Source: Patescibacteria group bacterium (lineage in GTDB: Bacteria; Patescibacteriota; Minisyncoccia; Phycocordibacterales; UBA9973). From it: a DNA stretch of 41,561 nt. This document shows, in pieces, positions 336 to 33,061 of this stretch. The translations under genes and the position numbers were made by a program. Location of the stretch: positions 1 through 41,561 of the forward strand of contig JBBUEH010000013.1 of NCBI GenBank assembly GCA_038078255.1. Direction: 5' to 3'. The notes under the pieces were generated by a model. It did not search any database and was not told the DNA's origin. It was given only the letters and a program-made list of their open reading frames with translations. The first letter of the stretch is position 1. The number at the start of each line of letters is the position of its first letter.

Positions 336-1160
336 ATGAAAGCAAAAAAATCTTTAGGGCTAAAAATTAAAAATAATTTCGCCCGGGCCAAAAAGGCTTT
401 AGGGCAAAATTTTTTAAAATCTGAATTGGCGCTCCGAAAGATTGTGGAAACAGGAGAAATAAAAAAAGATGATGTAATTCTAGAAATAGGGCCAGGGAAG
501 GGAGCCTTAACATCCAAGCTTTTAGCTTTTAGCTGTCAGGTTATAGCTATCGAGAAAGATAGAGAACTGATAACATTGCTGAAAGAAAAATTCAAGAAAG
601 AAATTGAAGAAAAAAGATTAAATTTAATACATGGTGATATTTTGGATTTTGATATAACTCAAATCGTTAGGCAAGACCTAACGATTTATAAGATTATTGC
701 CAATATTCCTTACAACATTACCGGAGCAATTTTGAAAAAATTCCTGACAGAAAAAAATCAGCCAGAGAGCATGGTCTTGATGGTCCAACATGAGGTGGCA
801 AAAAGAATCATGGCTCAAGATAAAAAAGAAAGCATGCTCTCTCTTTCGGTCAAAGCTTATGGAGAGCCTAAAATGATCATGAAGGTTCCAGCCCGATATT
901 TCTCCCCAGCACCAAAGGTGGACTCGGCTATTATCGCTATCAGAAATATTTCTCGAGAATTATTCATCACCCTAGAATTCGAAAAAAAATTCTGGGAAAT
1001 AGTCAGGGCAGGCTTTGCTCACAAAAGAAAAAAGCTTTCGAGCAACTTAAAAAACACTATTTCATGTCAAGGGGAGTCCTTGACATTTTTGGGAAACAAG
1101 AGGGCGGAGAATTTAACACTGGAAGACTGGATATTGCTTACTAAAGAATGTTATAATTAA
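336..1160 (+). CDS. rsmA: 16S rRNA dimethyladenosine transferase RsmA/KsgA
   Basis: 274 aa. KKALGQNFL signature, SAM-binding LEIGPGKGALT, NIPYNIT motif. Confidence 0.9.
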   Translation: MKAKKSLGLKIKNNFARAKKALGQNFLKSELALRKIVETGEIKKDDVILEIGPGKGALTSKLLAFSCQVIAIEKDRELITLLKEKFKKEIEEKRLNLIHGDILDFDITQIVRQDLTIYKIIANIPYNITGAILKKFLTEKNQPESMVLMVQHEVAKRIMAQDKKESMLSLSVKAYGEPKMIMKVPARYFSPAPKVDSAIIAIRNISRELFITLEFEKKFWEIVRAGFAHKRKKLSSNLKNTISCQGESLTFLGNKRAENLTLEDWILLTKECYN

Positions 1161-1220: not shown

Positions 1221-2108
1221 GTGGTATTTGTTTTGGTCGTTTTTGTTTTAAAAAATAAAGACTCGTTGGGACTTGCTGGAAAAGAAAATGGTACAGAAGA
1301 AATGGGGTTAATTTATGGCAATGAAATACTAGAGAATTTAATAACTAGAGATACTGACCTAGATGGGGTGCTCGACTGGGAAGAAGGGTTGTGGGGGACA
1401 GATCCAACAAAAAAAGATACCAATGACGACGGAGTATTCGATGGTGTGGAAATAGCCAAACTGAAAACTGCGCAGGAAGATTATATCTTCGATGGAGAAT
1501 TGGGAGGAGATACCTCTGAAACAGGCGAATTGACGGAAACAGATAAATTCTCTAGGGAATTTTTCTCAACTGTGACAACGCTCAACCAAAGTGGAGTAAT
1601 AGATCAAGCCACGATGGACAAATTAGGCGAATCTTTAGCAGAGAAAATAAAAAATTCTGCGCCGAGAAAAATATTTCTACTTTCTGATCTAAAAATAATA
1701 GAAGATGGTAGTCTGCAAGCTATCAAAAATTATAATAATGCTTTGGATAATATTCGAAAAAAATACCCCGTTGAGACAAATGCTATGGACATACTGCAAA
1801 AATTCATTGTTGATGAAAATACCGTTGATGTCGCTGTATTATCAGAACTTGATCCAATCATCGAACAAACAGAAAAAATAGTAAATGAATTGGCAAAGAT
1901 GAGTATTCCGGAGTCTATTGCCCCGCTCCATCTCGACTTTTTAAATGGAATAGAAAGATTGGTGGAAAACTTAAATGATATCCAACTTTATGAGGTTGAT
2001 GTCATCTTAGCCTTGAGCGCCATCAGTCAATATGAAGAAAACATCACAACATTAGAATCAGCCAATAACGAACTGGTAAAGATCCTTCAGCAAAAATTGA
2101 GTAACTAA
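1221..2108 (+). CDS. Membrane-anchored hypothetical protein with thrombospondin-type-3-like Asp-rich (Ca-binding) repeats; first gene of the T4SS-like module
   Basis: GTG start, N-terminal hydrophobic helix. DTDLDGVLDWEE..GTDPTKKDTNDDGVFDG repeats. No other family recognised. Confidence 0.6.
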   Translation: MVFVLVVFVLKNKDSLGLAGKENGTEEMGLIYGNEILENLITRDTDLDGVLDWEEGLWGTDPTKKDTNDDGVFDGVEIAKLKTAQEDYIFDGELGGDTSETGELTETDKFSREFFSTVTTLNQSGVIDQATMDKLGESLAEKIKNSAPRKIFLLSDLKIIEDGSLQAIKNYNNALDNIRKKYPVETNAMDILQKFIVDENTVDVAVLSELDPIIEQTEKIVNELAKMSIPESIAPLHLDFLNGIERLVENLNDIQLYEVDVILALSAISQYEENITTLESANNELVKILQQKLSN

Positions 2109-2135
2109 GGAAAAAACAGTATAATTAAGTATAAA

Positions 2136-4835
2136 ATGAGCTTCAAAAATAAAACGAGTCAAAAAATAATTTCTGCTCTTCTAATTATTTTAATAATAGC
2201 GCCCGTTGCCATGTTTTCTGTACCCCAAAAAGCAGAAGCCTTTTGGTTCTCGACCTGGCTGACAGATGCAAGCACTACTACAACAGCAGTTACCACTGGA
2301 ACAGGCGCAACGGCGGAAGTTACACAGGTTGGCTTAAAAATAAAAGATGTTGCCAAAGAAATTTTAAGACAAATACTCATGACCGTCGCCAGAAGATTCT
2401 TACAGCAAATGACTAAAAGCACTATTAACTGGATTAATTCCGGCTTCCATGGAGCGCCGCTCTTCGTAGAAAATCCCAAATCTTTCTTCAGAGACATCGC
2501 TAAATATGAAATTAAAAATTTAATAGACTCCGTCGGTCGAGATCCGAAGAGATTCCCCTTCGGGAGGAACATGGCATTGGGCACAATCGCTGGCTTCAAG
2601 AGAACACTGGAGAACAATATGGAATACAGTCTAAGCAGAGTCATTGACGATCCTATCCTGCTCGAAAGATATCGAAGTGATTTCGATGTTGGAGGATGGA
2701 ATGGATTCTTAATCAATACGCAATATCCGCAAAATAATTATCTGGGATACCAGATGCTCTATACTGAGGAATTAGCAAGGAGACTTGAAGGCACGATCCA
2801 AAATAAAGCCCAAAAAGTAAATGAAGTTCTGGACCGAGGAATGGGCTTTTTGTCTCCGGAAACTTGTGCAGACAATAATGGGAATAATGCATACAATACA
2901 GTTCTTGCAAATCAATTTCAAAGACCAACCTATAAATCCCCAACCTTTGCGTTGCCTCCGGCTGTTTATGAATCAACTAGCGAAGTTGGTGACACTACTA
3001 CTGCCAGTGATACACTTTATCGTGGCGCTGAAACTCAAGAATCTATCAAAGCAAGAGAGGCTTATGCTAAAGATTGGCAAACAAGGGATGCAAATCTAAA
3101 AAAAGTCTGGGCAAGAAAAAATACTTGCGAGAATTTAGTTGCAACCACCCCCGGCTCTGTAGTAGCAAATCAAATAATGGGTGCGCTGGATTCAGGCAGA
3201 AAATTGGGTGAACTTGGCGCCGCTTTGGGTAATAGCATCTCTGCTATTTTTGATGCTTTATTAAACAAATTCTTGGGTGATGGACTAAATGCTCTTGCAA
3301 GCAAAGCAAATCCAGTAGTTCAAACGGACAACTGGGAGTATGATAAAGAGACTCTTGGTGGTCCAGCAGATGGAACTAATGTTCCTTGGGATTCTGGCCC
3401 GGACGAAGAAATTGTTTTGGATAAATTTGTAAAACAACTGGATGGCAAAACTACCATCACTGACAAGGATGGAGTGTTCGTTGACGAAAACATCGGGAAT
3501 AGTAGTGAAAAAACTATCATTATTACAGATATTATCGTGGATAAAGAGACTAATAAAGAAAGCGGGATTGAAACAAAATATGAGTTTGGAATACTGAATG
3601 AAACATTAGATCCTTCGAAACCTGAGCTTGATGTAAATACAGGAAAAGTAACTATCACTAAAGATGGAATTAAAAATGAAGGAACATATACCTTCTTCCC
3701 CGGCGATATAGAAAACACCAAGAAGGAACTTAAATTAATATCAAATGAAATTTCAGAAGATCCTGGAGTTACTGAAGTAATGGGAGAAATTTGGCCAAAA
3801 GCCCGAGACCTTGATATCTGCCAACCTGGCCCAGACCTGGGATGGAAAGAAAGAGTGATGAATGAGTTAAGTAGAAATAGTAAAAAACTCCAAGAAAAAC
3901 TAACCGATGATGATGGGAAAAAATCAGCTCAAGCTGATTTGGCTCTCAAGGAACTAAAATTTGCTGTAAACTTTTTCAAAGACTGGATAATTAACAACAT
4001 GATGAAGGGTCTCCCAAGATCTATGCTTTACATGGATGCCATAGATGAAATAGGGGAGTTGGCTCAACAAGCAGACGAACTAACCGACAAAAGACGAACA
4101 AAATCTCAAGCATTAGCAAGATTGCAAGCAATCAAGCTAAATCTAGATACTATTACCAGATTCAACTCAAATGGCAAGGTTCTCCAGCCAGAAAAAGAAT
4201 CCGTTGATGAAAAAATAATGATAACCTTAAGAAAACAATACAATGCAAACAAAATTGGAATTTCAAACAGCAATACGGTAGATGATATGAAAAATGAGCT
4301 AGCTATTGCAAAAGAAAAATTAGTAAACCTAAACAAGCTTGTAGCGGAATGTGAAGTAGCAAGAGAAGCAAATGGCTGGAGCCTGCCGGGTGGGCCACTC
4401 AGTGCGTATAGTGGCACTTCATCTTCTGGACAAGCTTTGTCCGATACGGAAAAAGGAATTTTCTGTGATGCGCCTATTAAGGGTGGATATACTCATGAAT
4501 CTTTTATACAAAGAAATACAGAAACTCATTCAGAAATACCATTAGTCAACGCAGAAGATGTGTTGAAGTGGCGTCGTTTTGGTTTTATCTTTGGGAACTT
4601 CACGGTTGATATAGAACTAAGTTGCAGTGTTATCTGGAAAGCCAATGTATTGGACTATAAGGGCAATCTACCCGGAACAACCAAACTAAAAGAGCCCTAT
4701 GTAGAGTTGCTAGATGACATAAGTGGCTTAGGTATTTGTAATGGTTACAATAATACTACTGGGGAAACAGTGACGGAATCAAATGTAACCCAAAGCGACT
4801 GTGGCACAGCAGGTGGAAGTTGGACTCCTTTTTAG
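2136..4835 (+). CDS. Large (899 aa) secreted/anchored hypothetical protein, Thr-rich linker, Cys-containing C-terminus
   Basis: Long uninterrupted ORF. N-terminal signal-anchor ...VPQKAEA, poly-Thr stretch. No family recognisable by eye. Confidence 0.7.
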   Translation: MSFKNKTSQKIISALLIILIIAPVAMFSVPQKAEAFWFSTWLTDASTTTTAVTTGTGATAEVTQVGLKIKDVAKEILRQILMTVARRFLQQMTKSTINWINSGFHGAPLFVENPKSFFRDIAKYEIKNLIDSVGRDPKRFPFGRNMALGTIAGFKRTLENNMEYSLSRVIDDPILLERYRSDFDVGGWNGFLINTQYPQNNYLGYQMLYTEELARRLEGTIQNKAQKVNEVLDRGMGFLSPETCADNNGNNAYNTVLANQFQRPTYKSPTFALPPAVYESTSEVGDTTTASDTLYRGAETQESIKAREAYAKDWQTRDANLKKVWARKNTCENLVATTPGSVVANQIMGALDSGRKLGELGAALGNSISAIFDALLNKFLGDGLNALASKANPVVQTDNWEYDKETLGGPADGTNVPWDSGPDEEIVLDKFVKQLDGKTTITDKDGVFVDENIGNSSEKTIIITDIIVDKETNKESGIETKYEFGILNETLDPSKPELDVNTGKVTITKDGIKNEGTYTFFPGDIENTKKELKLISNEISEDPGVTEVMGEIWPKARDLDICQPGPDLGWKERVMNELSRNSKKLQEKLTDDDGKKSAQADLALKELKFAVNFFKDWIINNMMKGLPRSMLYMDAIDEIGELAQQADELTDKRRTKSQALARLQAIKLNLDTITRFNSNGKVLQPEKESVDEKIMITLRKQYNANKIGISNSNTVDDMKNELAIAKEKLVNLNKLVAECEVAREANGWSLPGGPLSAYSGTSSSGQALSDTEKGIFCDAPIKGGYTHESFIQRNTETHSEIPLVNAEDVLKWRRFGFIFGNFTVDIELSCSVIWKANVLDYKGNLPGTTKLKEPYVELLDDISGLGICNGYNNTTGETVTESNVTQSDCGTAGGSWTPF

Positions 4836-4870
4836 TTTCGAAAAAGAAAGTTTGGAGAGTAGAAAACGAA

Positions 4871-6949
4871 ATGAGAAAATTAATTAAAAAAATAATTCCA
4901 TATTGCTTCATCCTCCTCATCCTCGCCGGACTTTTCGGTGCGGGGGAAGATGTGATGGCGCAAACACCTTCTTTTACAACACTAAACCCAGAACAAAAAG
5001 CTCGTTTTGATGGTCTTTATGCGACTTGCATGGAAAATCGTGGGTATGATGCAAGTGGTCCGAGTATTTGCGAAAGCCAAGCAATGAGAGTGATCTTGGG
5101 CACGGGATCACAGAATGACATCGGGGCAACAACAACAGCTACAACAACAGACGAGTCAGCATTCGACAGAGCAGTTACTAGTAAAATATGTGTACTCTCA
5201 GATTGGACTGGGGGTAGTATAGAAGGATGTATATTGCAATTTGTTTATTGGACCTTTTACACTCTTGGAGGTTGGTTGCTTGCTATTGCCGCTTCTTTGT
5301 TCAATTTTCTCATCATGATCACCCTAGGTAGCGCATTGTTAAAATCAAATTTCGTCTCTTCTGCCTGGGCAGTAGTCCGAGATCTTTCTAATCTTTTTTT
5401 CATTCTTGTTCTGCTTTACATAGCCATCAAGATGATTCTAGGATTGGGGGGGTCTGATGTAAAGAAAATGATCGTTCAGGTAATAATCATGGCCCTGCTT
5501 ATTAACTTTTCTATGTTTATGACTCACATTGTTATTGACACTTCCAATGTTCTTGCCTTAGTTTTCTACAATAAAGTCAATACCACTCCTAAAAAAGATA
5601 ACAAAGCACCGAATGCAGTAGCATCGCTTATTGATTATGCAACTGAAACAAAAGATATTGCCGGGGGTTTGACACAATCGTTTAATCCAGTATATAAGTT
5701 ACCTTCAGAATTCTTTACATCTGCCGTAATCATAAAAATACCAGGACGACCTCCGTTTAAAGAACCTATTTCAACTGGCATCTTGATCGGAATCACCGTG
5801 ATCGCTGGAGCGATTATGCTGTTCGCCGCTTATGCGCTTTTTATCTCAGCTTTAAGCTTTTTAGGCCGATTAATTGAACTTTTTATCTTAATCATCTTTT
5901 CTCCTTTCGCTTTTATGTCTCTGACTGTGCCGAAATTCGCAGGATTAGACTATTTAGGATGGGATGCGTGGCTAAAGCGCTTACTCAATGTGTCATTCAT
6001 GGCGCCAATCTTCATGTTCTTTTTGTATTTTATATTTTTATTGCTTGCAGATGGGGCAAGTATGTTTTCCGATTCGCTAAAAGGAGAAGGTGTGGTACAT
6101 ACACTTTTAGGTATTATGCTCCCGGCAATAGTAATTATGACTCTTCTCTTGAAAGCCACTGAATTCGCCAAGAAAGGTGGAGGAAAATTCGGAGAACTGG
6201 CAATCGGAGCAGGGAAACTAGTGGGTGGGCTTGCACTCGGAGCGGGGATAGGTGGAGCGGCGATGGCGGCAAGAACAACTATTGGTGGGGGTTTGGGTGG
6301 TCTAGCCAACAAAGTTGGCGCCAAGAGGCTTGGAGGTTATTTGCAGAGTAAAAGTTATGATGTACGCACAATACCGGGAGCTGGAAAACTTCTGGGTGCT
6401 ACAGGCCTAGCTGGAGGCGCTGGCGCCATAAAAACAAAAGAGGGTGGCTGGACACAGATGAAAAAAGAACAAGTGGAAAAAAGAATGAAGAGAGCAGACG
6501 AAACAATAAATAGAAAGACTTCTGGGAAAAAGAAAAAAGTGGAAGATGCACAAGCAGAACTAGATGAAAAAACACTTTTGGTAAAAGTAGACTTAGATGA
6601 AGCTAATAAAGCAATAGAAAAATGGAAAGGCGAATTAGCTGACGCACAAAGAGCAGGAGATGCAAGAGGAGTAACCAAAGCACAAATGGCTTTAGCACAA
6701 GCTAAAGACGACAAGACAAATCTACGAGCTAGAGCTGGTTTAGGGGTAGCTGAAAACAAAGTTCGCGATGCACAAAGAGATCTAGATACAGAAATTGGCA
6801 AAGTTGCTTCCGCTCAAGCGAATCGTGTAAAGAGTAGTTGGAGTAAAGCATGGGGACTATTTTCTAACCTGGGAGCATATAGTGTGGCAGGCGCAGACGA
6901 AGCTGCTAGAAATATAAGGAGGAGAGCAAAATTAGAAACAAAAACATAA
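4871..6949 (+). CDS. VirB6/TrbL-like polytopic membrane protein with Gly-rich and Lys/Ala-rich coiled-coil C-terminal tail
   Basis: ATG at 4871 follows GGAG and avoids the overlap of the 4820 start. Has a signal sequence, a Cys-containing periplasmic segment, a poly-Thr linker and at least 6 hydrophobic helices. The tail is GGGKFGELAIGAGKLVGGLALGAGIGG followed by a charged coiled coil. Confidence 0.6.
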   Translation: MRKLIKKIIPYCFILLILAGLFGAGEDVMAQTPSFTTLNPEQKARFDGLYATCMENRGYDASGPSICESQAMRVILGTGSQNDIGATTTATTTDESAFDRAVTSKICVLSDWTGGSIEGCILQFVYWTFYTLGGWLLAIAASLFNFLIMITLGSALLKSNFVSSAWAVVRDLSNLFFILVLLYIAIKMILGLGGSDVKKMIVQVIIMALLINFSMFMTHIVIDTSNVLALVFYNKVNTTPKKDNKAPNAVASLIDYATETKDIAGGLTQSFNPVYKLPSEFFTSAVIIKIPGRPPFKEPISTGILIGITVIAGAIMLFAAYALFISALSFLGRLIELFILIIFSPFAFMSLTVPKFAGLDYLGWDAWLKRLLNVSFMAPIFMFFLYFIFLLLADGASMFSDSLKGEGVVHTLLGIMLPAIVIMTLLLKATEFAKKGGGKFGELAIGAGKLVGGLALGAGIGGAAMAARTTIGGGLGGLANKVGAKRLGGYLQSKSYDVRTIPGAGKLLGATGLAGGAGAIKTKEGGWTQMKKEQVEKRMKRADETINRKTSGKKKKVEDAQAELDEKTLLVKVDLDEANKAIEKWKGELADAQRAGDARGVTKAQMALAQAKDDKTNLRARAGLGVAENKVRDAQRDLDTEIGKVASAQANRVKSSWSKAWGLFSNLGAYSVAGADEAARNIRRRAKLETKT

Positions 6950-6953
6950 ATAT

Positions 6954-7364
6954 ATGACCAATAAATTAAAACAAATAGCAATAGAAGAGATAAAAAAATT
7001 GCCAAAAGAAGCACAAGATATGATAAATTCTTTGGATTGGGGAAAAATTACGGAAGAAATTGGTAAAAAATATTTACTTTCAGAAAGTGAAATAAATGAT
7101 TTCCAAGTAGAAACTTTGTTGGTGTTGGTGGGTATTGAGAACGGAGATTTCTATGCGCAAAATATTGAAAATGAAGTCGGTACCAGCAAAGCTGAAGCAG
7201 AAAAAATTGCAAACGAAACACTAGAAAAAATATTCATTCCGATAAGTAATCTTCTGGAAGAAAATATTAAAAAAAATCTACCTAACAAAAATCCAAACCA
7301 CGAACAAAATGTTAATTTTATTCTTTCTGGCGGAGATTATTCAAGTTTTATAGAAGAAAAATAA
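6954..7364 (+). CDS. Hypothetical small protein, paralog of the next ORF
   Basis: 136 aa. Aligns by eye with 7366-7947 (LPKEAQDMINSLDW / LPTETINAINAVDW; ETLLVLVGI / ETELLLCGL; GTSKAEAEKIANE / GISKIAANELADE). Confidence 0.6.
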   Translation: MTNKLKQIAIEEIKKLPKEAQDMINSLDWGKITEEIGKKYLLSESEINDFQVETLLVLVGIENGDFYAQNIENEVGTSKAEAEKIANETLEKIFIPISNLLEENIKKNLPNKNPNHEQNVNFILSGGDYSSFIEEK

Positions 7365-7365
7365 C

Positions 7366-7947
7366 ATGAACGACACAGTAGATTTATTACAAATAAAAAT
7401 AGAGAAGGCAAGAAGGGAATTGCCCACAGAAACTATTAACGCCATCAATGCTGTTGACTGGAGGGAAGCTATCTTGGCGCTCCGAACGAAGAAGGGCTAC
7501 ACCTTCGAGCAATTAGGCGATCTGGAGCTTGAAACAGAATTGCTGTTATGTGGACTTTTAGCACCTGAGGATTACCCGAAGGAAATAGAAAAAAGAATGG
7601 GAATTTCTAAAATAGCCGCAAATGAACTGGCAGACGAAATGAATAATTCAGTATTCAAAAAAATCAGAGAAGAACTAATAAAGAATACGGAAAGAAAAAA
7701 AGTATTTCAAAAAAGACAAGAATCTCAAAAAGAAAACTCTATTTTTAGTTCCGCAGGGATTGAAATTGTCGGGGAAAAAGACATCCACCCGATGTTGCTG
7801 CAAAAATTATCCACCTCTGTTCAAACCCCAACAATAAAAACCACCCACACCCTCGAAAATATTACTCCAAAGATCGATGCCCCGATAAAACCAGCCCCTT
7901 CTTCTTATCCGCCCAAAGCAGACCCTTATCGTTTGTCACCAGAATAA
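7366..7947 (+). CDS. Hypothetical protein, paralog of the previous ORF with a Pro-rich C-terminal extension
   Basis: 193 aa. Starts 1 nt after the previous stop. Shared N-terminal domain, see 6954-7364. Confidence 0.6.
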   Translation: MNDTVDLLQIKIEKARRELPTETINAINAVDWREAILALRTKKGYTFEQLGDLELETELLLCGLLAPEDYPKEIEKRMGISKIAANELADEMNNSVFKKIREELIKNTERKKVFQKRQESQKENSIFSSAGIEIVGEKDIHPMLLQKLSTSVQTPTIKTTHTLENITPKIDAPIKPAPSSYPPKADPYRLSPE

Positions 7948-7952
7948 TATTT

Positions 7953-8387
7953 ATGCGATTCCAAGTTCCACAATTTTTAGAGATCGAGGACAAAATTTTC
8001 GGTCCGTTTACTTTCAAAGAGTTCGTCTACTTGGCGGGCGGAGCAGGTTTGTGTTTTGTACTTTATAAATTATTGGGTCTGACTATTGGGATTCTGCCGA
8101 TTTTAGCTGTAGCTGGAATCTCGCTGCTACTCACTTTCTATCGACCGAACGATAAACCTTTTATCAACATGGTTGAAGCGGGGTTGACTTATTTTATGCA
8201 AAGTAAACTTTATATTTGGAAAAGACGAGAAGGAAAAATAGATGACGGCAGAAAAAAAGCAGAAGCTCTGGAAGTAGAAAGAAAGAGAAAGCAGATAGAG
8301 GGTGGGGCAAAGTTGGGCGCTAATAAATTACGAGATCTGGCTTGGAGTTTGGATGTGCTAGATTTAAATAAACACCCAGAAAATTAA
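7953..8387 (+). CDS. PrgI-family (VirB3-like) small membrane protein
   Basis: MRFQVPQFLEIEDKIFGPFTFKEFVYL followed by two hydrophobic helices is the PrgI-type pattern. Lies directly upstream of VirB4-like genes. Confidence 0.6.
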   Translation: MRFQVPQFLEIEDKIFGPFTFKEFVYLAGGAGLCFVLYKLLGLTIGILPILAVAGISLLLTFYRPNDKPFINMVEAGLTYFMQSKLYIWKRREGKIDDGRKKAEALEVERKRKQIEGGAKLGANKLRDLAWSLDVLDLNKHPEN

Positions 8388-8394
8388 GAAAAAT

Positions 8395-9033
8395 ATGTCA
8401 TTAAATGCAAAATCAACTCAAGAGTTCGTGCCCATCAAGGAAATCCGTGATGGAATAATCGTCTTGAAAGACGATTCCTTGCGAGCGGTCGTGCTCGCCA
8501 ACTCGATCAACTTGTCTTTGAAATCATCCGATGAACAGAAAGCAACCATTCTGCAATTCCAAAATTTTCTGAATACCCTTGATTTCACTGCGCAGATTTC
8601 AATCCAATCGAGAAGACTGGACATTCGACCTTATCTCTTACTTTTAGAAGAGCGGATGAAAGCGCAGACGGAGCCCTTGCTTAAATTACAAACCAAAGAA
8701 TACATCGCCTTCATCAGAGATTTCACCGATTCGGTCAGCATCATGACGAAAAGTTTCTTCGTGGTGGTGCCTTATACCCATAATGTTTTTCAATCAAATT
8801 CCGGAATATTAGGTCGTTTGTTTGGTCGGAAAAGCAAAGAAGAGGCACGGGTAGAGAAACAAGAAGACTTCGAAGAAAAGAGGTCCCAGCTCGAGGAGAG
8901 GGTGGGTGTCGTTCAGCAGGGACTTGGTCGTTGTGGCATAAACTCAGCTCAACTTGGCACCGAAGAAGTAGTAGAAGTATTTTATAAAGTTTTTAACCCC
9001 GGAGAAGTGGAAGGAAAAATTAGGATAGAATAA
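8395..9033 (+). CDS. VirB4 N-terminal-domain-like protein (separate ORF)
   Basis: 212 aa. TQEFVPIKEIRDGIIVLKDDSLRAVVLANSINLSLKSSDEQ resembles the N-terminus of Gram-positive VirB4/TcpF/ConE-type ATPases. Stop at 9031-9033 lies 1 nt before the next ATG. Confidence 0.5.
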   Translation: MSLNAKSTQEFVPIKEIRDGIIVLKDDSLRAVVLANSINLSLKSSDEQKATILQFQNFLNTLDFTAQISIQSRRLDIRPYLLLLEERMKAQTEPLLKLQTKEYIAFIRDFTDSVSIMTKSFFVVVPYTHNVFQSNSGILGRLFGRKSKEEARVEKQEDFEEKRSQLEERVGVVQQGLGRCGINSAQLGTEEVVEVFYKVFNPGEVEGKIRIE

Positions 9034-9034
9034 T

Positions 9035-10900
9035 ATGATGGATTTTTTAAAAAAATTATTTGGAGGAAAAAACGCCAAGCTTGGTGGAGGAAGTTCAAAT
9101 TCCAGCCTCTTGGGAACTTCCATTCTGCCCATTTTGCCGGATCAAATTTACGAGAACGCCTCCTTCGAGCTTCAAGATATCATTGCGCCCTCTGCGCTTA
9201 AAATTGAATCGAAGTCTATTAGCCTAGGCGACAAAATCGCTCGCACTTTTTTCATTATCTCTTACCCCAGATTCTTGACGGACAATTGGTTTTCTCCGAT
9301 TATCAATCTAGATAAAATTTTTGACATTTCAATTTTTATTCATCCAATAGATACATCGCTCATCTTGCGACAATTTCAGAAAAAGGTGGCGGAAGTGCAA
9401 AGCCAGATCAATGTGCGAGAAGCCAAGGGTATGGTCCGAGATCCAATGCTGGACACTGCTTACCGAGATTTAGAAGGGTTGCGGGATAATTTAATTCAGG
9501 CGCAAGAAAAAATGTTCGATGTGGGTATTTACATCACCATTTATGCCGATAATGATTTGGAACTTTTCAAATTGGAAAATGAAATAAAATCAATGCTGGA
9601 GTCAAAACTAATCTATATTAAACCAGCGCTTTTCCAGCAAGAAGATGGTTTCAAAAGCGTCATCCCGATCAATACGGACCGTCTAAACATTCACCAAAAA
9701 TTAAACTCCGAGCCACTTTCCAGCGTTTTCCCGTTTATTTCTTTCGATTTAACTTCCGACCGTGGAATACTTTATGGAATCAATCGACATAATTCAAGTC
9801 TGGTGATTTTCGACAGATTTTCGCTTGAAAATTATAATTCTGTCACCTTTGCCAAGGCCGGTTCGGGTAAATCGTATGCCACCAAACTAGAAATTTTAAG
9901 ATCTCTGATGTTCGACATTGATGTTCTCGTTATCGACCCAGAAAGAGAATATGAATTCTTGGCAGAAGCGGTCGGTGGAAGATATTTTAATATTTCTCTC
10001 TCGAGCGACCATCACATGAACCCCTTTGACTTGCCGATTCCCCGAGAAGACGAAACAGCGGAAGATGTTCTCAGGTCAAATATTATAAATTTAGTCGGAC
10101 TTTTCCGGTTGATGCTCGGAGGACTCACGCCCGAAGAAGATTCGATGGTGGACAGAGCTATTTCAGAAACTTATGCCATCAAAGACATTACCCCAGAGTC
10201 AGACTTTTCGAACATTGACCCTCCGCTCCTTTCGGATTTCGAAATGGTCTTGGGAGGCATGGATGGAAGTGATTCTGTCGTGCAGAGATTAGCAAAATAC
10301 ACGAAAGGTTCCTGGGCCACATTTTTAAACAGACCCAGCAATGTGGATATCAATAAAAAATTTGTTGTTTTTTCTATTCGAGACATGGAAGACGAGTTGA
10401 AACCAGTGGCGATGTATATCATCATGCACTACATCTGGAATTCAATCAGGAAAAATTTAAAGAAAAGGTTATTGGTAGTGGACGAAGCCTGGTGGATGAT
10501 GAAGTCGGAAGACACTGCCTCTTTCCTTTATTCTATTGCCAAGCGAGGCAGAAAATATTATTTGGGTCTTTCCACCATCACTCAGGATGCGGGAGACTTT
10601 ATGAATTCGCCTTATGGCATACCAATCATCACCAACTCTTCTATCCAGCTTTTACTAAAACAATCTCCGACCACGATTGATGTTCTGCAAAAGACTTTCA
10701 ATCTTTCTGACGAAGAAAAGTATCTTCTGCTCGAATCCAATGTGGGAGAAGGAATATTCTTTGCCGGATTAAAGCATGTGGCGATAAAAATAATTGCTTC
10801 TTACACCGAAGATCAAATCATCACCTCCGACCCTTCGCAAATATTATCAAACCGCAAAGCTAAAGAAGAACACGAAAAAGAAGAGCTGGGCAGACAGTAG
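9035..10900 (+). CDS. VirB4/TraE-type T4SS ATPase
   Basis: 621 aa. Walker A KAGSGKSY, Walker B LLVVDEAW. IIAPS..GDKIARTFFIISYP N-domain pattern. Confidence 0.85.
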   Translation: MMDFLKKLFGGKNAKLGGGSSNSSLLGTSILPILPDQIYENASFELQDIIAPSALKIESKSISLGDKIARTFFIISYPRFLTDNWFSPIINLDKIFDISIFIHPIDTSLILRQFQKKVAEVQSQINVREAKGMVRDPMLDTAYRDLEGLRDNLIQAQEKMFDVGIYITIYADNDLELFKLENEIKSMLESKLIYIKPALFQQEDGFKSVIPINTDRLNIHQKLNSEPLSSVFPFISFDLTSDRGILYGINRHNSSLVIFDRFSLENYNSVTFAKAGSGKSYATKLEILRSLMFDIDVLVIDPEREYEFLAEAVGGRYFNISLSSDHHMNPFDLPIPREDETAEDVLRSNIINLVGLFRLMLGGLTPEEDSMVDRAISETYAIKDITPESDFSNIDPPLLSDFEMVLGGMDGSDSVVQRLAKYTKGSWATFLNRPSNVDINKKFVVFSIRDMEDELKPVAMYIIMHYIWNSIRKNLKKRLLVVDEAWWMMKSEDTASFLYSIAKRGRKYYLGLSTITQDAGDFMNSPYGIPIITNSSIQLLLKQSPTTIDVLQKTFNLSDEEKYLLLESNVGEGIFFAGLKHVAIKIIASYTEDQIITSDPSQILSNRKAKEEHEKEELGRQ

Positions 10901-10918
10901 ATATGATATAATTAAAAT

Positions 10919-11938
10919 ATGAAGTTTAGACTTTTATCATTATATTTAGTTGTGATCCTTTCAGTCTTTGGAATAATTTTCTCGTTCAGTTTAAATAAAA
11001 TCAGGGCGGCTTCTTCGAGTAGTGTCTTGGTCAACATTGCGCCAGAAAATCCAGCCCCACATGAAGATGTCACTATTGATTTAAGTAGTTATGCTAATAA
11101 TTTAGACAGTGTTTCGATTCTTTGGTCTTTAAATGGCAGAAATGTTTTGTCTGGAATCGGTAAAAAGTCATTTTCTCTTACCGCCCCCGCCGCCGGAGAG
11201 GAAGCCATTATTACAGCCAATATTTCTTTCCCCGATGGTAATTTAGAAAAAAGAATAATCATCCGACCTTCCGTGATGGTGCTCCTCTCCCAGGCGACAG
11301 ATTCTTTCGTTCCACCATTCTATAGAGGGAAAGCTATGCCCACAGCAGACAGTGAAATTAAGATTGTTGCAATGCCAGAGATTAGCGCCTTAGGCTCTCC
11401 AGAGAGCCTAAGGCGCTCTTTGGTTGATCCAAAAAACATGACTTATGCCTGGAAGAAAGATTATACCAACAATCAAGAAGCGTCGGGTTATGGTAAAAAT
11501 TTTTTCATTTATACGAATGATTATTTAGAAGATTCAAATACTGTCTCAGTAGTAGCCTCGACAGTAGATCAGAAATATTCTTCTGAAGCAAACATTGAGG
11601 TGGGGGTAGCGGAGCCGAAAATTGTTTTCTATAAAAATGACAATGCGCTTGGAACAATTTGGGAAAGAGCTCTCTCTGATTCATATCGAATGGAAAATGC
11701 AGATATGATTGTGGAAGCGGCGCCTTATTTCATTTCACCTAAAGAATTACTGCATCCCTACCTGATCTGGACTTGGTCTATTAATGACACTGCCGTGCCT
11801 GTGCCAGACTTCAAGAAAAATTTCATGCCTCTGCGAATACAAAGCGGAACTTCTGGAACGGCCAAGCTCCGACTGGTTATCGAAAACATGGACAAAATTT
11901 TCCAAACGATGAGCAAAGAGGTGAATATAGAATTTTAA
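10919..11938 (+). CDS. Secreted/anchored hypothetical protein (beta-rich)
   Basis: 339 aa with N-terminal signal-anchor. No family recognised. Contains an in-frame 34-nt palindrome. Confidence 0.6.
   Translation: MKFRLLSLYLVVILSVFGIIFSFSLNKIRAASSSSVLVNIAPENPAPHEDVTIDLSSYANNLDSVSILWSLNGRNVLSGIGKKSFSLTAPAAGEEAIITANISFPDGNLEKRIIIRPSVMVLLSQATDSFVPPFYRGKAMPTADSEIKIVAMPEISALGSPESLRRSLVDPKNMTYAWKKDYTNNQEASGYGKNFFIYTNDYLEDSNTVSVVASTVDQKYSSEANIEVGVAEPKIVFYKNDNALGTIWERALSDSYRMENADMIVEAAPYFISPKELLHPYLIWTWSINDTAVPVPDFKKNFMPLRIQSGTSGTAKLRLVIENMDKIFQTMSKEVNIEF
11384..11417. repeat. 34-nt palindrome (16-bp perfect arms, 2-nt centre) in-frame inside a CDS
   Basis: agcgccttaggctctc ca gagagcctaaggcgct, checked base by base. 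Encodes ..SALGSPESLRR.. Confidence 0.9.
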
Positions 11939-11942
11939 AACA

Positions 11943-12944
11943 ATGAAATTTTCAAAATACATTTTAATACTGATTGTACTGGTTGGACTTTTTGGTTCAA
12001 TAAATAAAGCTTACGCAGAAACATATGATGAATGCATATTGGGATATACTAAACAGGGAATACCTCGTGAAACGGCAAATAATTTTTGTCGTTTACCAGA
12101 CGCTCCACCAGCAACTCCCCCGGGTAGTTACAAACTTCTGGCTCCACTACCCGATATAACAACTTTCGACCCTGCGCCGAAAACCGGCGAAGATAATGTT
12201 CTGGGTGGGTATTTAAACCTAATGATTGGGTTACTTATCGGCATAGCCGCAGTCATGGCGGTGGTGATGATTGTGGTGGGCGGGATAGAGTACATGACCA
12301 GTGAATTGCCGGGAAATAAAGAACATGGCAAAGAGAGGATCAGGGATGCGATTTTCGGACTAATTTTAGCCCTCGGCTCCTGGGCGCTTTTGAATACAAT
12401 CAATCCTGATTTATTAAATACAAATATTAAAATAGAAACAGCGACTGTAAGTGTGGAGATGGCGGAACAATTAAAAATCTATTCGGGACAAGGAACATGT
12501 GAACCTATAACTACTGGTGTATGTAGCCCTGCGGCATTACAAAATGCTGGATTCACATCGGGAGAACAAGCTTCTTCTATATGCAATGGAGAGAGCAAAG
12601 GTAATGCAGCTGCGCAAAGTACAGTAGATAAATGTAGTGACGGTAAAGCCTTTTCTCATGGACTATTTCAAATAAATGTGATTGCGCACGCTAATGAAAT
12701 TCCAGGAGGCGTTTGTAGTGGAGTATTTCAAGTAAATGGAAGTGGGACACAGGGAACTTGCTTAAAAAAAAGTGGTAGTATTTGTATAGAATATGATTGT
12801 AGTGTTAAAGACCAAGCAAAATATCAATCTTGTATTGGTTATATTACAAATCCAACCAACAACATAACATACGCAAAAAATTTAAAAGCAGCTAGAAGCT
12901 GGACACAATGGGGTGCCTATAATTCATGTAGGAGTAAATTTTAA
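11943..12944 (+). CDS. T4SS pilin-like TM-hairpin protein fused to a Cys-rich SLT (VirB1-like lytic transglycosylase) domain
   Basis: Signal peptide, then LLIGIAAVMAVVMIVVGGIEYMTS...AIFGLILALGSWALLNTINP (pilin-like hairpin). The C-terminal domain carries the SLT motifs E-S (NGESKG), GLFQIN and AYN (WGAYNS). Confidence 0.65.
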   Translation: MKFSKYILILIVLVGLFGSINKAYAETYDECILGYTKQGIPRETANNFCRLPDAPPATPPGSYKLLAPLPDITTFDPAPKTGEDNVLGGYLNLMIGLLIGIAAVMAVVMIVVGGIEYMTSELPGNKEHGKERIRDAIFGLILALGSWALLNTINPDLLNTNIKIETATVSVEMAEQLKIYSGQGTCEPITTGVCSPAALQNAGFTSGEQASSICNGESKGNAAAQSTVDKCSDGKAFSHGLFQINVIAHANEIPGGVCSGVFQVNGSGTQGTCLKKSGSICIEYDCSVKDQAKYQSCIGYITNPTNNITYAKNLKAARSWTQWGAYNSCRSKF

Positions 12945-12949
12945 TTTTT

Positions 12950-14320
12950 ATGCAAAAAAGAAATTTTATACTTTTAATAATCGTCTTAGTTCTGGTAGTT
13001 ATTGGAGTTTTTGTGTTTTTATATTTCCAAAATGGAACAGAGGAAGAAAGTGAAGGCACAAATTTTATCGCCCGATTCAATCCCTTTGCCAGCAATAAGG
13101 GAACTCCTTCAGCCGGGAATCCACCTGTCGATGTATCCGGCTACGAACCCGGTCCGGAAGAAACAGAAAAGTTAAAATTAGTAAAAGTTTCCAGCATGCC
13201 CATTGCCGGATATACAATTTTTATCAAAGAAAGATTAAAAGAAATATCCTTGATTCCTCCCCTCCTTATGGAGGAGGGGGTTGGGGGTGGTGATAATTCT
13301 ACACCACCTCGCCCTTCGGGCACTCCTCCTCAGAAAGGAGGAGATAAAAAAAAGCCCACTCCGCCTCCCACAGAATTTATGCCCGCCTTACGCTATGTGG
13401 CAAAAGCGAACGGAAATATTTATCAATCATTTGTCGACAAAATAGAAGAGAGAAAGTTTTCAGGAACAATTATCCCGAAAGTATATGACGCATATTTCGG
13501 CAACAAAGGTGAGTCTGTGGTCATGCGCTATTTGAAAGGGGGAGGAGAAACAATAGAAACTTTCGTCGGCTCGTTGCCGAAAGAATACTTGGGTGGCGAT
13601 CTGGCTGAAGAAAACGAAATAAAAGGATCCTTCTTGCCGAACAATATCAAAGACCTTAGTGTCTCTCCAGACGGTTCAAAAATATTTTATTTATTTGAGA
13701 TTGGAAACAATATAGTAGGAACAACTTTAAACTTCTTAGATAACAAAAAAGTTCAAGTTTTTGATTCCCCTTTCACTGAATGGCTTTCGCAATGGGGGAA
13801 TGAAAAAACAATCCTCCTTTCGACTAAACCTTCTGGGAATGCCCCCGGCTATACATACAGTCTCGATCTAATCAAAAAGAATCTGCTGAAAGTCTTGGGT
13901 GAGATAAATGGGCTCACCACGCTTCTGAGTCCGGATGGAAAATTTATTATTTATACTGACAACAGCTTATTGCTTTCTGTCTTTTATGCAGACAGTCGGA
14001 ATTCAAACAGCTTGGGGATAGGAACTTTGCCAGAAAAATGTCTTTGGAATAAGACAAGCGAGGCTGTTTACTGCGCTGTGCCAAAATTTATTAATGCTGG
14101 CCTATATCCAGATATTTGGTATCAGGGAGAAGTGTCTTTCTCTGACCAGTTCTGGAAAATAGATATCCAAACTGGAAATGCTACCCTCCTCCTAGACCCT
14201 CTGACCGTTCCCGGTGGAGAAGAAATTGATGGAATAAAATTAGCCTTAGATAAAGACGAGGATTACTTATTTTTTGTAAATAAAAAAGATTCTTTTCTGT
14301 GGAAATTGGATTTGAAGTAG
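12950..14320 (+). CDS. Membrane-anchored protein with Pro-rich linker and PD40/TolB-like beta-propeller repeats
   Basis: N-terminal TM helix. SPDGSKIFY and SPDGKFIIY blade motifs. Carries the 92-nt repeat element in its linker. Confidence 0.6.
   Translation: MQKRNFILLIIVLVLVVIGVFVFLYFQNGTEEESEGTNFIARFNPFASNKGTPSAGNPPVDVSGYEPGPEETEKLKLVKVSSMPIAGYTIFIKERLKEISLIPPLLMEEGVGGGDNSTPPRPSGTPPQKGGDKKKPTPPPTEFMPALRYVAKANGNIYQSFVDKIEERKFSGTIIPKVYDAYFGNKGESVVMRYLKGGGETIETFVGSLPKEYLGGDLAEENEIKGSFLPNNIKDLSVSPDGSKIFYLFEIGNNIVGTTLNFLDNKKVQVFDSPFTEWLSQWGNEKTILLSTKPSGNAPGYTYSLDLIKKNLLKVLGEINGLTTLLSPDGKFIIYTDNSLLLSVFYADSRNSNSLGIGTLPEKCLWNKTSEAVYCAVPKFINAGLYPDIWYQGEVSFSDQFWKIDIQTGNATLLLDPLTVPGGEEIDGIKLALDKDEDYLFFVNKKDSFLWKLDLK
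13253..13344 (+). repeat. Multi-hairpin repeat element, copy A (in-frame inside a CDS)
   Basis: About 85-90% alignable by eye to the reverse complement of 23568-23672. Hairpins: cctcc-ttat-ggagg, ggtggtg-N9-caccacc, gccc-ttc-gggc, ctcctcc-N7-ggaggag. Confidence 0.8.
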
Positions 14321-15667: not shown

Positions 15668-15877
15668 TTAATTTAATGGATCAATGTGATTTTTCTGCCA
15701 CGGATGACAACGCAAAATACGAAAAAATCCTAAATAAATTCCTCGAGGGATGCCATATCTTTCTATTGCTTCTTTCATGTACTCCGAGCAAGATGGAAAA
15801 AAGACACATTTATTCCTAGGAGATAAAAATTTTTGGTAAAAACTAATTAATTTTATTGAGAATATTTTTAATTTCAT
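15668..15877 (-). CDS. yidD: Membrane protein insertion efficiency factor YidD
   Basis: The internal ATG at 15877 gives [20 protein letters not shown]...[19 protein letters not shown], the typical YidD sequence. The longer ORF start (15973) would overlap rnpA by 131 nt. Confidence 0.8.
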
Positions 15878-16169
15878 TTTCGATGATAGAAATATCGTCT
15901 TGATACTTCCTAAAAACAAAAGCGCCCACAAGCCCCGAAGGAAATTTCTGAATATATTTTCCCAAAACAGCATACCCCCGTCTTCTTAATAAATTTCTTT
16001 GCACCGCCAGCTTAGCGACACTTTTGGGCGCAATAAAAGAAATCTGTGGAACGGTGGAATTATTATTTAATATAAATTTAAAGGTGAGGCTGAAGGAAGT
16101 TAAAAATTTACCTGTTTTAAAGATTTTTTCTACTGCCTTTTTATCGGCTCTGTTTTTTTTAGGAAGCAT
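15843..16169 (-). CDS. rnpA: RNase P protein component
   Basis: 108 aa. Basic RNR-like motif [10 protein letters not shown]. Lies downstream of rpmH. Confidence 0.85.
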
Positions 16170-16180
16170 CTTAAACCAAA

Positions 16181-16315
16181 TTAAACACTGAGTTTTTTTC
16201 TACCTTTCTGTCGTCTGCGCAATAACACTTTGGAACCAGTTTTAGTTCTGGATCTAACTAGGAACCCATGTGCTCGGGCTCGTTTTCTCTTTTTGGGTTG
16301 ATATGTTTGAGACAT
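16181..16315 (-). CDS. rpmH: 50S ribosomal protein L34
   Basis: Not in the ORF track (44 aa). Hand translation gives [44 protein letters not shown], the L34 signature. Confidence 0.9.
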
Positions 16316-16321
16316 GGGATT

Positions 16322-16350
16322 AGTATATAATATTATCCACAGATTATCAA
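16322..16350 (-). promoter_or_regulatory. Putative rpmH promoter (TTGATA-17-TATACT) with a DnaA box in the spacer
   Basis: Minus strand reads TTGATAatctgtggataatattaTATACTaatcccATG. The -10 ends 6 nt before the ATG, which suggests a leaderless mRNA. Confidence 0.45.
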
Positions 16351-16352
16351 CA
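16333..16352 (+). promoter_or_regulatory. DnaA box TTATCCACA (perfect) followed by TTATCAACA variant; oriC-associated
   Basis: TTATCCACA at 16333-16341 and TTATCAACA at 16344-16352, in the rpmH-dnaA intergenic region. Confidence 0.7.
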
Positions 16353-16409
16353 TAGTTAGTAAGTTTTTACAATACCCCTAGTGCTAGAAATAGTATAGAA
16401 TGTGGAATC

Positions 16410-17753: not shown

Positions 17754-17770
17754 TTAAAAGTTATTAGACT

Positions 17771-17839
17771 TAAATTAAAAATAAAAAACACCAACAACCC
17801 GATAAATTAAAAATAAAAAAAGTTATCCACTTATCAACA
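17771..17839 (+). promoter_or_regulatory. Putative oriC unwinding region: 18-nt perfect AT-rich direct repeat x2 plus DnaA-box pair
   Basis: taaattaaaaataaaaaa at 17771-17788 and 17803-17820. TTATCCACT at 17823-17831 overlaps TTATCAACA at 17831-17839. Confidence 0.65.
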
Positions 17840-17882
17840 CCCTTAATAGTATTAATAAATTTAATATATAAAATATAAACAC

Positions 17883-33033: not shown

Positions 33034-33061
33034 GAATGTATGACTTTATTTTAACATGTTA

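Follow-up and report, generated by a model that had tools for sequence, protein, structure and literature searches.

A 41,561-nucleotide (nt) contig of a Patescibacteria group bacterium (JBBUEH010000013.1 in assembly GCA_038078255.1), referred to below at its full length as the window, carries close to dnaA a tightly packed row of genes (positions 1221–14320) whose products resemble parts of a type IV secretion system (T4SS). This locus raises the question of what such a set of genes represents without the DNA-processing genes of a conjugative element: a mobile element, the remains of one, or a machine that belongs to the cell. Our analysis makes it nearly certain that the module is a Patescibacteria-type T4SS, that is, a system on the chromosome, passed on vertically, that derives from the conjugation machinery of monoderm bacteria (mating-pair formation class FATA, MPF-FATA) and has lost its link to the DNA-processing genes. 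An earlier note on this DNA had likewise taken the module for a fixed chromosomal machine derived from a T4SS and not for a conjugative element. The conserved site and the co-divergence with DnaA and DnaN described below agree with that reading, and the same conclusion was reached in PMC10633639, PMC12102498, and PMC12857230. The first interpretation was therefore right but not new, because the system is already described in papers of 2023–2025 (Wang 2023; Quinonero-Coronel 2025; FEMS review 2025), which also cover the lack of a relaxase and the location beside dnaA, ksgA, rnpA, and rpmH.

Core components of the module

The module consists of 11 open reading frames (ORFs) arranged in series on the plus strand. 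They are listed here with their lengths in amino acids (aa) and their transmembrane (TM) segments.

1221–2108, plus strand: g1, 295 aa, anchored in the membrane and carrying TSP3-type repeats (bacterial, calcium-binding)
2136–4835, plus strand: g2, 899 aa, large extracellular protein with an N-terminal TM anchor
4820–6949, plus strand: g3, 709 aa, candidate polytopic channel protein in the VirB6 position
6954–7364, plus strand: g4, 136 aa, soluble, helical, paralogue of g5
7366–7947, plus strand: g5, 193 aa, soluble, paralogous to g4, tail rich in Pro
7953–8387, plus strand: PrgI/VirB3-like protein, 144 aa, two TM segments
8395–9033, plus strand: TrsD-like ORF, 212 aa, VirB4 N-terminal domain as a separate protein
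9035–10900, plus strand: VirB4 ATPase, 621 aa, C-terminal motor part
10919–11938, plus strand: g9, 339 aa, N-terminal TM helix and three tandem immunoglobulin (Ig)-like beta-sandwich domains
11943–12944, plus strand: g10, 333 aa, signal peptide, VirB2-like pilin hairpin, and lysozyme/SLT-like C-terminal domain
12950–14320, plus strand: g11, 456 aa, TolB-like beta-propeller behind an N-terminal TM anchor and a Pro-rich linker

Starting with the spacer between rsmA and g1, the intergenic distances are 60, 27, -16, 4, 1, 5, 7, 1, 18, 4, and 5 nt; none of the 11 ORFs is disrupted. The earlier note had counted thirteen co-directional ORFs with gaps of 1–60 nt. The common direction was read correctly, but the number is 11 and the gaps range from -16 to 60 nt; thirteen is reached only by including the 3' fragment of uvrD (10–318) and rsmA (336–1160). 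The gene content can be summarized as a split VirB4 (the TrsD-like ORF and the ATPase), a PrgI/VirB3 protein, a polytopic protein in the VirB6 position, a VirB2-like pilin to which a lysozyme/SLT-like domain is fused, and six accessory proteins.

The core assignments rest on Pfam and NCBIfam matches judged against curated cut-offs. The ATPase scored 360 bits against NCBIfam conju_CD1110 (cut-off 325) and also matched Pfam P-loop_TraG (6e-24), AAA_10, and DUF87. Walker A (AKAGSGKS, residue 273) and Walker B (LLVVDE, residue 479) were both located, in line with the VirB4-type ATPase named from the sequence beforehand. The separate VirB4 N-terminal domain proposed in the earlier note also found support. 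The TrsD-like ORF gave matches below the cut-offs but consistent with one another, to the N-terminal part of VirB4_plasma (residues 101–237, 4e-10), to CD1110 (residues 2–104, 5e-5), and to TrsD (1e-4), together with a precomputed PF26593 TraC-like match. Its 3' end lies 1 nt ahead of virB4, and it was found in 81 of the 81 loci compared below at 53–82% identity. From these matches and this arrangement, we take the TrsD-like ORF and the ATPase ORF to be, together, a split VirB4. The predicted PrgI/VirB3-like protein with two TM segments also stands, as its score against Pfam PrgI (30.1 bits) exceeds the cut-off of 27 and a TM hairpin is seen at residues 24–65; this gene was present in 77 of the 81 loci.

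The assignment of g3 is less direct. Hydropathy indicates a signal or TM segment, a Cys-containing ectodomain, about seven TM helices, a segment rich in Gly, and a coiled-coil tail that is charged. No VirB6, TrbL, PrgH, or CD1112 match of the window protein was found in Pfam or NCBIfam, and TrbL was not matched in 32 g3 orthologues in Pfam. Similarly, the PDB profile search gave no VirB6/TrbL match, the TrbL domain was on none of the matches listed in a database search with the family profile, and an hhalign comparison with the clostridial CD1112 protein was not significant (probability 0.8%). Weak NCBIfam matches were obtained with the same 32 orthologues: eight to MMCAP2_0566 (best 8.5e-7), four to Mbov_0396, and three to the CD3337/EF1877 mobilome membrane family. 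The position of g3 just upstream of PrgI and VirB4 is that of the VirB6-like gene CD1112 in the clostridial plasmid pCDC3875. The gene order in this Clostridium botulinum plasmid is VirB6-like, PrgI, an unnamed ORF, VirB4, an unnamed ORF, and a wall hydrolase, plus VirD4, and the plasmid is typed MOBP. Thus, of the VirB6/TrbL-like polytopic protein claimed before, the polytopic nature and the position were borne out, but profile support for the window protein was not obtained. On its topology, its position, and the weak family-level matches of its orthologues, g3 is a candidate for the polytopic channel protein.

The composition and the site of the module correspond to what a survey of 3,035 genomes described for the phylum (Quinonero-Coronel 2025, PMC12102498). 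In that survey, VirB4 forms a monophyletic clade nested in MPF-FATA; TrsD, PrgI/VirB3, VirB6, and VirB2-like pilins lie near virB4; and a neighbourhood of dnaA, dnaN, rnpA, ksgA, and rpmH was reported for Paceibacteria and Microgenomatia. The site in the window, near dnaA, dnaN, rnpA, rpmH, and ksgA, is the Paceibacteria pattern described there.

Conservation, inheritance, and absence of mobility genes

The comparison set consisted of 80 Paceibacteria species representatives (L002–L081), which together with the window give 81 loci, and the identities are tblastn best-segment values. In these 80 genomes, which go by the names Nomurabacteria, Paceibacterota, Parcubacteria, and similar ones, VirB4 was matched at 75–92% identity, and the source of the window accordingly belongs to the Ca. 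Nomurabacteria/Paceibacteria within the Patescibacteria. A synteny check proposed in the earlier note returned the same order, rsmA-g1-g2-g3-(g4/g5)-PrgI-TrsD-VirB4-g9-g10-g11-jag-yidC-yidD-rnpA-dnaA-dnaN-PBP1, in all loci of sufficient length, g10 being displaced in three of them. VirB4 identity followed DnaA and DnaN identity closely (Spearman rho 0.94–0.95). Because the divergence of VirB4 tracks that of DnaA and DnaN, the cluster is considered to be vertically inherited. VirB4 was more conserved than DnaA in all 51 of 51 loci (median 86% versus 79%), and the surface proteins of the operon had median identities of 30–46%. Judged from these identities, the motor is under strong selection, with a constraint above that of DnaA. 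Identity of VirB4 to plasmid VirB4 proteins was at most 35%, the best plasmid matches being monoderm CD1110-family proteins (28–35%).

These data bear on the possibility that the module is what is left of an integrated conjugative element, now decaying and without a function. The absence of mobility genes from the window would be expected of such a remnant, but all 11 ORFs are intact, their order is kept in those related loci that are long enough to display it, and VirB4 is 76–92% identical across these loci, above DnaA. On account of the conservation data, we regard the remnant as practically excluded.

The window also lacks the marks of a mobile element. The Pfam scan of the other window ORFs (about 150 aa or more, over 41.5 kb) gave no match to VirD4, a relaxase, an integrase, or a plasmid replication gene, in agreement with the absence stated in the earlier note. 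No tRNA borders the module, the only tRNAs in the window being at 30.8 kb and 41.5 kb. The G+C content of the module (0.39–0.41) is inside the range of the remaining window (0.34–0.44), with no composition break at the module edges. An integrative and conjugative element (ICE) or a conjugative plasmid was therefore rejected, as neither a relaxase, a type IV coupling protein (T4CP), an integrase, a tRNA boundary, nor a G+C break was found in the window, and the module keeps a fixed site and diverges together with DnaA and DnaN. The statement that there is no coupling protein holds for this window only.

A working conjugation or DNA exchange system might nevertheless have its relaxase and coupling protein elsewhere in the genome, or in forms too divergent to be recognized; as a variant, the module could import DNA in the manner of Helicobacter pylori ComB or archaeal Ced. 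Such a function would be in keeping with the descent from conjugative MPF-FATA machinery, and VirD4-like genes are indeed far from virB4 in most Patescibacteria genomes (PMC12102498); ComB was cited as a precedent for uptake by a 2024 perspective in PNAS, which called the role of the T4SS in Saccharibacteria "completely unknown". Against it, relaxases were found in only 103 of the 3,035 genomes surveyed, and the t4cp homologue of S. epibionticum is non-essential, whereas other T4SS genes are essential (PMC12102498). The T4SS cluster of this bacterium (SEML1_0006–0019) is essential for epibiotic growth, has pilins, and is without recognisable coupling or relaxase proteins (Wang 2023, PMC10633639). 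Its T4SS genes, including the pilins, are required for epibiotic growth and comEC is dispensable (PMC10633639, PMC12857230), so that the essentiality of the T4SS does not act through competence. This requirement is known only from S. epibionticum (PMC10633639). In addition, strict vertical inheritance at a fixed site fits a cellular organelle better than a mobile element. We consider DNA exchange to be very unlikely as the function of the module.

The pilin–hydrolase fusion protein g10

The only pilin-like ORF in the window, g10, is composed of a signal peptide, a short Cys-containing N-terminal segment, a pilin hairpin (residues about 85–155), and a Cys-rich C-terminal domain. Pfam T4SS_pilin was matched at residues 97–153 with 36.4 bits (cut-off 26.6), along with TrbC (6.5e-4) and the NCBIfam pilin-like family ICE_MMCAP2_0565 (1.5e-6). 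The C-terminal domain reached 18.8 bits against SLT_3, below the cut-off of 27, and gave a weak match to C-type lysozyme (E 0.3). The motifs of family-1 lytic transglycosylases occur in order (NGES, GLFQ, and AYN at residues 215, 240, and 325, respectively), and the E-S and GL[FW]Q motifs are kept in the three g10 orthologues of the same class. Of the pilin hairpin fused to an SLT hydrolase that the earlier note described, the pilin was thus confirmed above its cut-off; the SLT profile match falls below its own, though the three motifs are in place.

The C-terminal domain is not constant among relatives. The T4SS_pilin hairpin is retained in 35 of 39 syntenic g10 orthologues, and the domains attached to it include NlpC/P60 (7), VanY (6), SLT_2 (3), Amidase_5 (3), YkuD (2), SLT_3 (2), and others. 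The N-terminal ectodomains vary as well, with Ig, TIG, and filamin types among them. The C-terminal domains of 44 g10 orthologues fell into 16 classes that were not linked by BLASTP, several of them without a recognised family. Among 23 species pairs in which VirB4 identity is 90% or higher, 18 have different hydrolase classes, as exemplified by a swap between NlpC/P60 and YkuD in two species at 94.5% VirB4 identity. No description of this swapping pattern was found in the literature on PF18895, pilins, NlpC, and T4SS in Patescibacteria. The fusion and the variation of the hydrolase class suggest a hydrolase-bearing pilus or tube directed at cell walls. A bolder reading is that the single pilin is a carrier of interchangeable peptidoglycan-hydrolase "warheads", exchanged even where VirB4 identity between species is 90–95%, that a hydrolase-studded tube drills the host wall, and that the hydrolase class reflects host wall chemistry and therefore marks host range; we consider this reading doubtful.

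Hydrolase domains could also be seen as cargo. Were the module an effector translocator, toxins or host-manipulating effectors would be exported into the host, as by the T4SSs of pathogens and the bacteria-killing T4SS of Xanthomonas. T4SSs that kill bacteria typically carry peptidoglycan hydrolase domains as cargo (PMC6536674). Protein export was raised as a possibility by Wang 2023 (PMC10633639) and by the 2024 PNAS perspective, and it occurs without a T4CP in some T4SSs, namely Ptl and Brucella VirB (PMC12102498). In g10, however, the hydrolase is covalently fused to the pilin hairpin and is not a free cargo; moreover, candidate effector/immunity pairs are absent in and beside the cluster, and the window has no T4CP. 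An effector translocator is accordingly unlikely in our view.

Accessory and surface proteins

Four of the accessory proteins, g1, g2, g9, and g11, carry membrane anchors. AlphaFold2 (AF2) models were made for two proteins, g2 and g9.

In g1, DxDxDG-type repeats can be read directly, and TSP3_bac matches four orthologues (5.7e-9), which upholds the TSP3-repeat protein named earlier; there is also a weak match to the repeat region of CglD. The gene is syntenic in 35 loci. The frame upstream of its GTG codon (1221), within 1161–1221, encodes KKRILLITLAVVFVLVVFVLK, a TM anchor like the N-termini of the orthologues, and this stretch contains no ATG, GTG, or TTG in frame. From this reading of the frame, the true start of g1 is probably a non-canonical ATA or ATT codon near 1164–1167, and a start at that position would restore the TM anchor.

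The large protein g2 has one TM segment (residues 6–33), an N-terminal half conserved in sequence, and a C-terminal half composed of a long helical bundle and small beta domains. No match was found in Pfam, NCBIfam, or the PDB sequence and profile search, and a Pfam scan of family members was uninformative. The family comprises 404 members, all hypothetical proteins, and the source names given are all Paceibacteria, Parcubacteria, or "bacterium". The overall predicted local distance difference test score (pLDDT) of the model was 68, with values above 90 for about residues 520–820 in the C-terminal half. A Foldseek search of the PDB with this model returned nothing at E<0.02, only generic helical bundles at E>=0.02.

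The two tandem paralogues claimed in the earlier note were recovered: g4 and g5 are 29% identical over 127 aa in BLASTP (E 2e-5). The former showed no TM segment and no family match in Pfam or NCBIfam. In several relatives (L013, L014, L036, and others), both genes are matched by one ORF of about 330 aa, indicating a gene that was split or fused in evolution.

The AF2 model of g9 (pLDDT 89) displays three Ig-like domains behind a TM helix. Foldseek against the PDB retrieved NCAM Ig1-3, CD45 d1-d4, Hoc, and SiiE with E values of 1e-8 to 1e-6. The family contains 912 members, all hypothetical proteins, with source names given as Paceibacteria, Parcubacteria, or "bacterium" throughout, and g9 was present in 76 of the 81 loci. 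On the strength of the predicted fold, g9 is a stalk made up of three Ig-like domains and anchored in the membrane. The earlier description of a beta-rich protein of 339 aa without a recognisable family was right as to the beta structure, but the protein now resolves into three Ig-like domains on a membrane anchor. The earlier note had also advised structure prediction and Foldseek in search of a VirB8/NTF2-like fold, and here an Ig-like fold was obtained instead. The candidacy of g9 as a VirB8/TcpC-like protein was rejected: a TM helix is present, but the ectodomain consists of three Ig-like beta-sandwiches in both AF2 and Foldseek, with no NTF2 fold.

Within the g9 coding sequence, there is a perfect 15-bp inverted repeat at 11384–11417 (34 nt, G+C-rich). 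It coincides with a 7-residue loop insertion that is nearly absent from 74 aligned homologues, one of which fills a single column. The 34-nt palindrome was considered as a dispersed repeat and rejected, since it occurs only once in the window.

The last protein, g11, has a TM segment at residues 1–31, a weak PD40 match, and a profile-search match to TolB (7mx5, E 0.004), consistent with the PD40 propeller recognized before. Among 39 orthologues, PG_binding_1 was matched in five and PD40 in four; the gene was found in 69 of the 81 loci.

The anchored proteins lead to a further alternative, in which the module is a device for surface assembly and adhesion only. VirB4 would insert or extrude the pilin–hydrolase and aid the display of the anchored proteins, the hydrolase would open the cell's own wall in the role of VirB1, and nothing would pass through the structure. 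Five of the surface proteins in the cluster are anchored by a single TM pass and have folds like those of adhesins (Ig, TSP3, and beta-propeller), and a large SLT protein occupies the same position in pCDC3875. In Gram-positive conjugation, the membrane-anchored hydrolase next to VirB4 (PrgK, TcpG, and CwlT) cuts the donor's own wall. The chemistry of a cell's own wall, however, should be stable at 94% VirB4 identity, and yet the hydrolase class differs; mere display would hardly explain a motor more conserved than DnaA; and type IV pili already supply adhesion in the phylum. We therefore judge this alternative to be distinctly unlikely.

Proposed mechanism

The earlier note had suggested host contact, uptake, or delivery as the role of the module in a reduced, host-dependent organism, and both the affiliation with Patescibacteria and the literature on this system lend support to such a role. 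We propose that the split VirB4 motor, together with PrgI and the polytopic protein, would pull the pilin–hydrolase out of the membrane and polymerise it into a surface pilus or tube. The tube would traverse the producer's own wall and then attack the cell wall of the host. The anchored surface proteins g1 (TSP3 repeats), g2 (899 aa), g9 (Ig stalk), and g11 (TolB-like propeller) may form a collar, either wall-spanning or an adhesive surround. The structure would serve the epibiotic lifestyle and host contact, most likely as a conduit for the uptake of host material.

The Agrobacterium T-pilus is assembled without VirD4. The set of VirB2, VirB3, VirB4, a VirB6-like protein, and a hydrolase, without a T4CP, is what Agrobacterium needs for pilus assembly, and this supports a pilus. 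The different wall-hydrolase domains found on the pilin hairpin across species support an attack on walls. With regard to uptake, a cultivated patescibacterium that takes up host RNA is linked by tubes to the cytoplasm of its host (bioRxiv 10.64898/2026.06.21.733656).

Several points weigh against this mechanism. The VirB6 assignment of g3 is weak, and a VirB8-like protein was not found in the module, g9 not being one. A pilin with a C-terminal domain of 180 aa might fail to polymerise, and g10 could instead be a membrane-anchored hydrolase of the VirB1 type that opens the cell's own wall. The hydrolase swaps could be neutral exchange among wall-opening enzymes. A VirD4-like gene may lie elsewhere in this genome, as in most Patescibacteria, which would leave room for the translocation of substrates through a coupling protein. 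Finally, the tubes in the OT8 preprint (bioRxiv 10.64898/2026.06.21.733656) may be something other than T4SS pili. The mechanism of pilus, wall attack, and uptake is therefore put forward tentatively, as somewhat less than evenly balanced and with much less certainty than the identity; for the statement of identity and mechanism taken as a whole, we consider the case for and against about equal.

Genomic surroundings of the module

The module is flanked upstream by rsmA and downstream by jag, yidC, yidD, rnpA, and rpmH on the minus strand, followed by dnaA-dnaN. The placement between rsmA and the jag-yidC-rnpA-rpmH/dnaA block, as given in the earlier note, was corroborated by locating rpmH and the DnaA boxes. 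Two further features belong to these flanks.

1128–1157, plus strand: promoter-like site just upstream of g1, in the 3' end of rsmA (TGGATA, 18 nt, TATAAT, with an extended -10 TG); 10/12 in a consensus scan, a pattern match only
16181–17882, no strand assigned: origin context, with rpmH at 16181–16315 (minus strand), dnaA at 16410–17753 (plus strand), and DnaA boxes in the rpmH-dnaA and dnaA-dnaN spacers

The DnaA boxes are at 16333 and 16344 (span 16333–16352) and at 17823 and 17831 (span 17823–17839). If oriC corresponds to these boxes beside dnaA, the 13-kb operon runs toward the origin, head-on to the leftward fork, and this orientation is kept in relatives. Within the window, GC skew did not serve as an origin marker; it goes with the coding strand, without a switch at dnaA. 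The listed ORFs of yidD and rnpA (15668–16169, minus strand) overlap by 131 nt. Because the YidD domain begins at residue 38, the start of yidD is probably an internal Met, and the overlap would be an artefact of ORF calling.

Most of the other scanned ORFs of the window are housekeeping genes, and a few found nothing in Pfam; among those identified are ruvABC, polA, a pilB-like ATPase, a C5 methylase, a lexA-like gene, fpg, rpsT, tyrS, PBP1, dnaA, and dnaN. The PilB-like type II/IV secretion ATPase is encoded at 25488–27218 (minus strand), and no adjacent pilus genes were recognised. The C5 cytosine methylase lies beside a LexA-like S24 repressor at 31888–33691 (minus strand). An ORF of 581 aa at 37986–39731 (minus strand) was considered as a hidden coupling protein and rejected; it has no Walker A motif and no Pfam match, and it looks like a J-domain protein with an HPD motif.

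Relation to known systems and significance

The module shares with the published T4SSs of the Patescibacteria clade the VirB4, TrsD, PrgI/VirB3, VirB6-like, and VirB2-like pilin components and the wall hydrolases next to virB4, in a chromosomal cluster that has no relaxase or T4CP and that lies, in Paceibacteria, near dnaA, dnaN, rnpA, rpmH, and ksgA. Among these systems, Saccharibacteria have an array of six short pilins and separate peptidase and lysozyme genes, whereas the Paceibacteria cluster described here has one pilin, fused to a hydrolase. It further differs from the published Patescibacteria T4SSs in the class-specific accessory proteins g1, g2, g9, and g11, which are without a family match and are unnamed in the text consulted from those papers. 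Likewise, no mention was found in Wang 2023, Quinonero-Coronel 2025, and the FEMS review 2025 of the higher conservation of VirB4 than of DnaA, the Ig stalk of g9, or the variety of pilin–hydrolases.

Outside the phylum, the monoderm MPF-FATA modules (CD1110/CD1112/CD1115; pCDC3875, pCW3 Tcp, and pCF10 Prg) share the collinear core of a VirB6-like protein, PrgI, VirB4, and a wall hydrolase, with VirB4 at the identities given above. They differ in having VirD4 and a relaxase, in being mobile elements, and in a VirB4 that is a single protein of about 800 aa and not split; no pilin has been reported for them. The T4SSs of Mollicutes ICEs (pilin-like Mbov_0395 and MMCAP2_0565, membrane proteins Mbov_0396 and MMCAP2_0566, and the VirB4 protein Mbov_0397) are among the best NCBIfam matches of the pilin hairpin, the polytopic protein (via its orthologues), and the VirB4 N-terminal domain ORF. 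These matches are all below the curated cut-offs, and the mycoplasma system belongs to an ICE that is mobile and has transfer functions, with a pilin-like protein of about 80 aa without a fused domain. Since mycoplasma ICE families rank among the best NCBIfam matches of three components, the pilin-like hairpin may have been present earlier in the monoderm MPF-FATA branch and not borrowed from diderm systems.

The bacteria-killing T4SS of the Xanthomonas type resembles the module in that peptidoglycan hydrolase domains are brought to bear on a neighbouring bacterium. In contrast to the module, it is a diderm MPF-T system with free effectors recruited by VirD4 via XVIPCD domains and with immunity proteins, none of which are found here. 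H. pylori ComB and archaeal Ced are, like the module, VirB4-based machines without a relaxase, in their case for uptake. Their component sets are different, however; the CedB match of VirB4 spans only a 70-aa P-loop stretch, and the T4SS of S. epibionticum is essential though competence is not.

The window thus provides a clean and complete Paceibacteria example of this system, with a motor constrained beyond DnaA, fast-evolving surface parts, and a lone pilin with a changing hydrolase, but it does not represent a new kind of system. The T4SS of Patescibacteria is one of a small number of envelope machines with a demonstrated essential role in the epibiotic life of a very large and mostly uncultured group, and the change of hydrolase type among close relatives bears on how such bacteria reach into their hosts.

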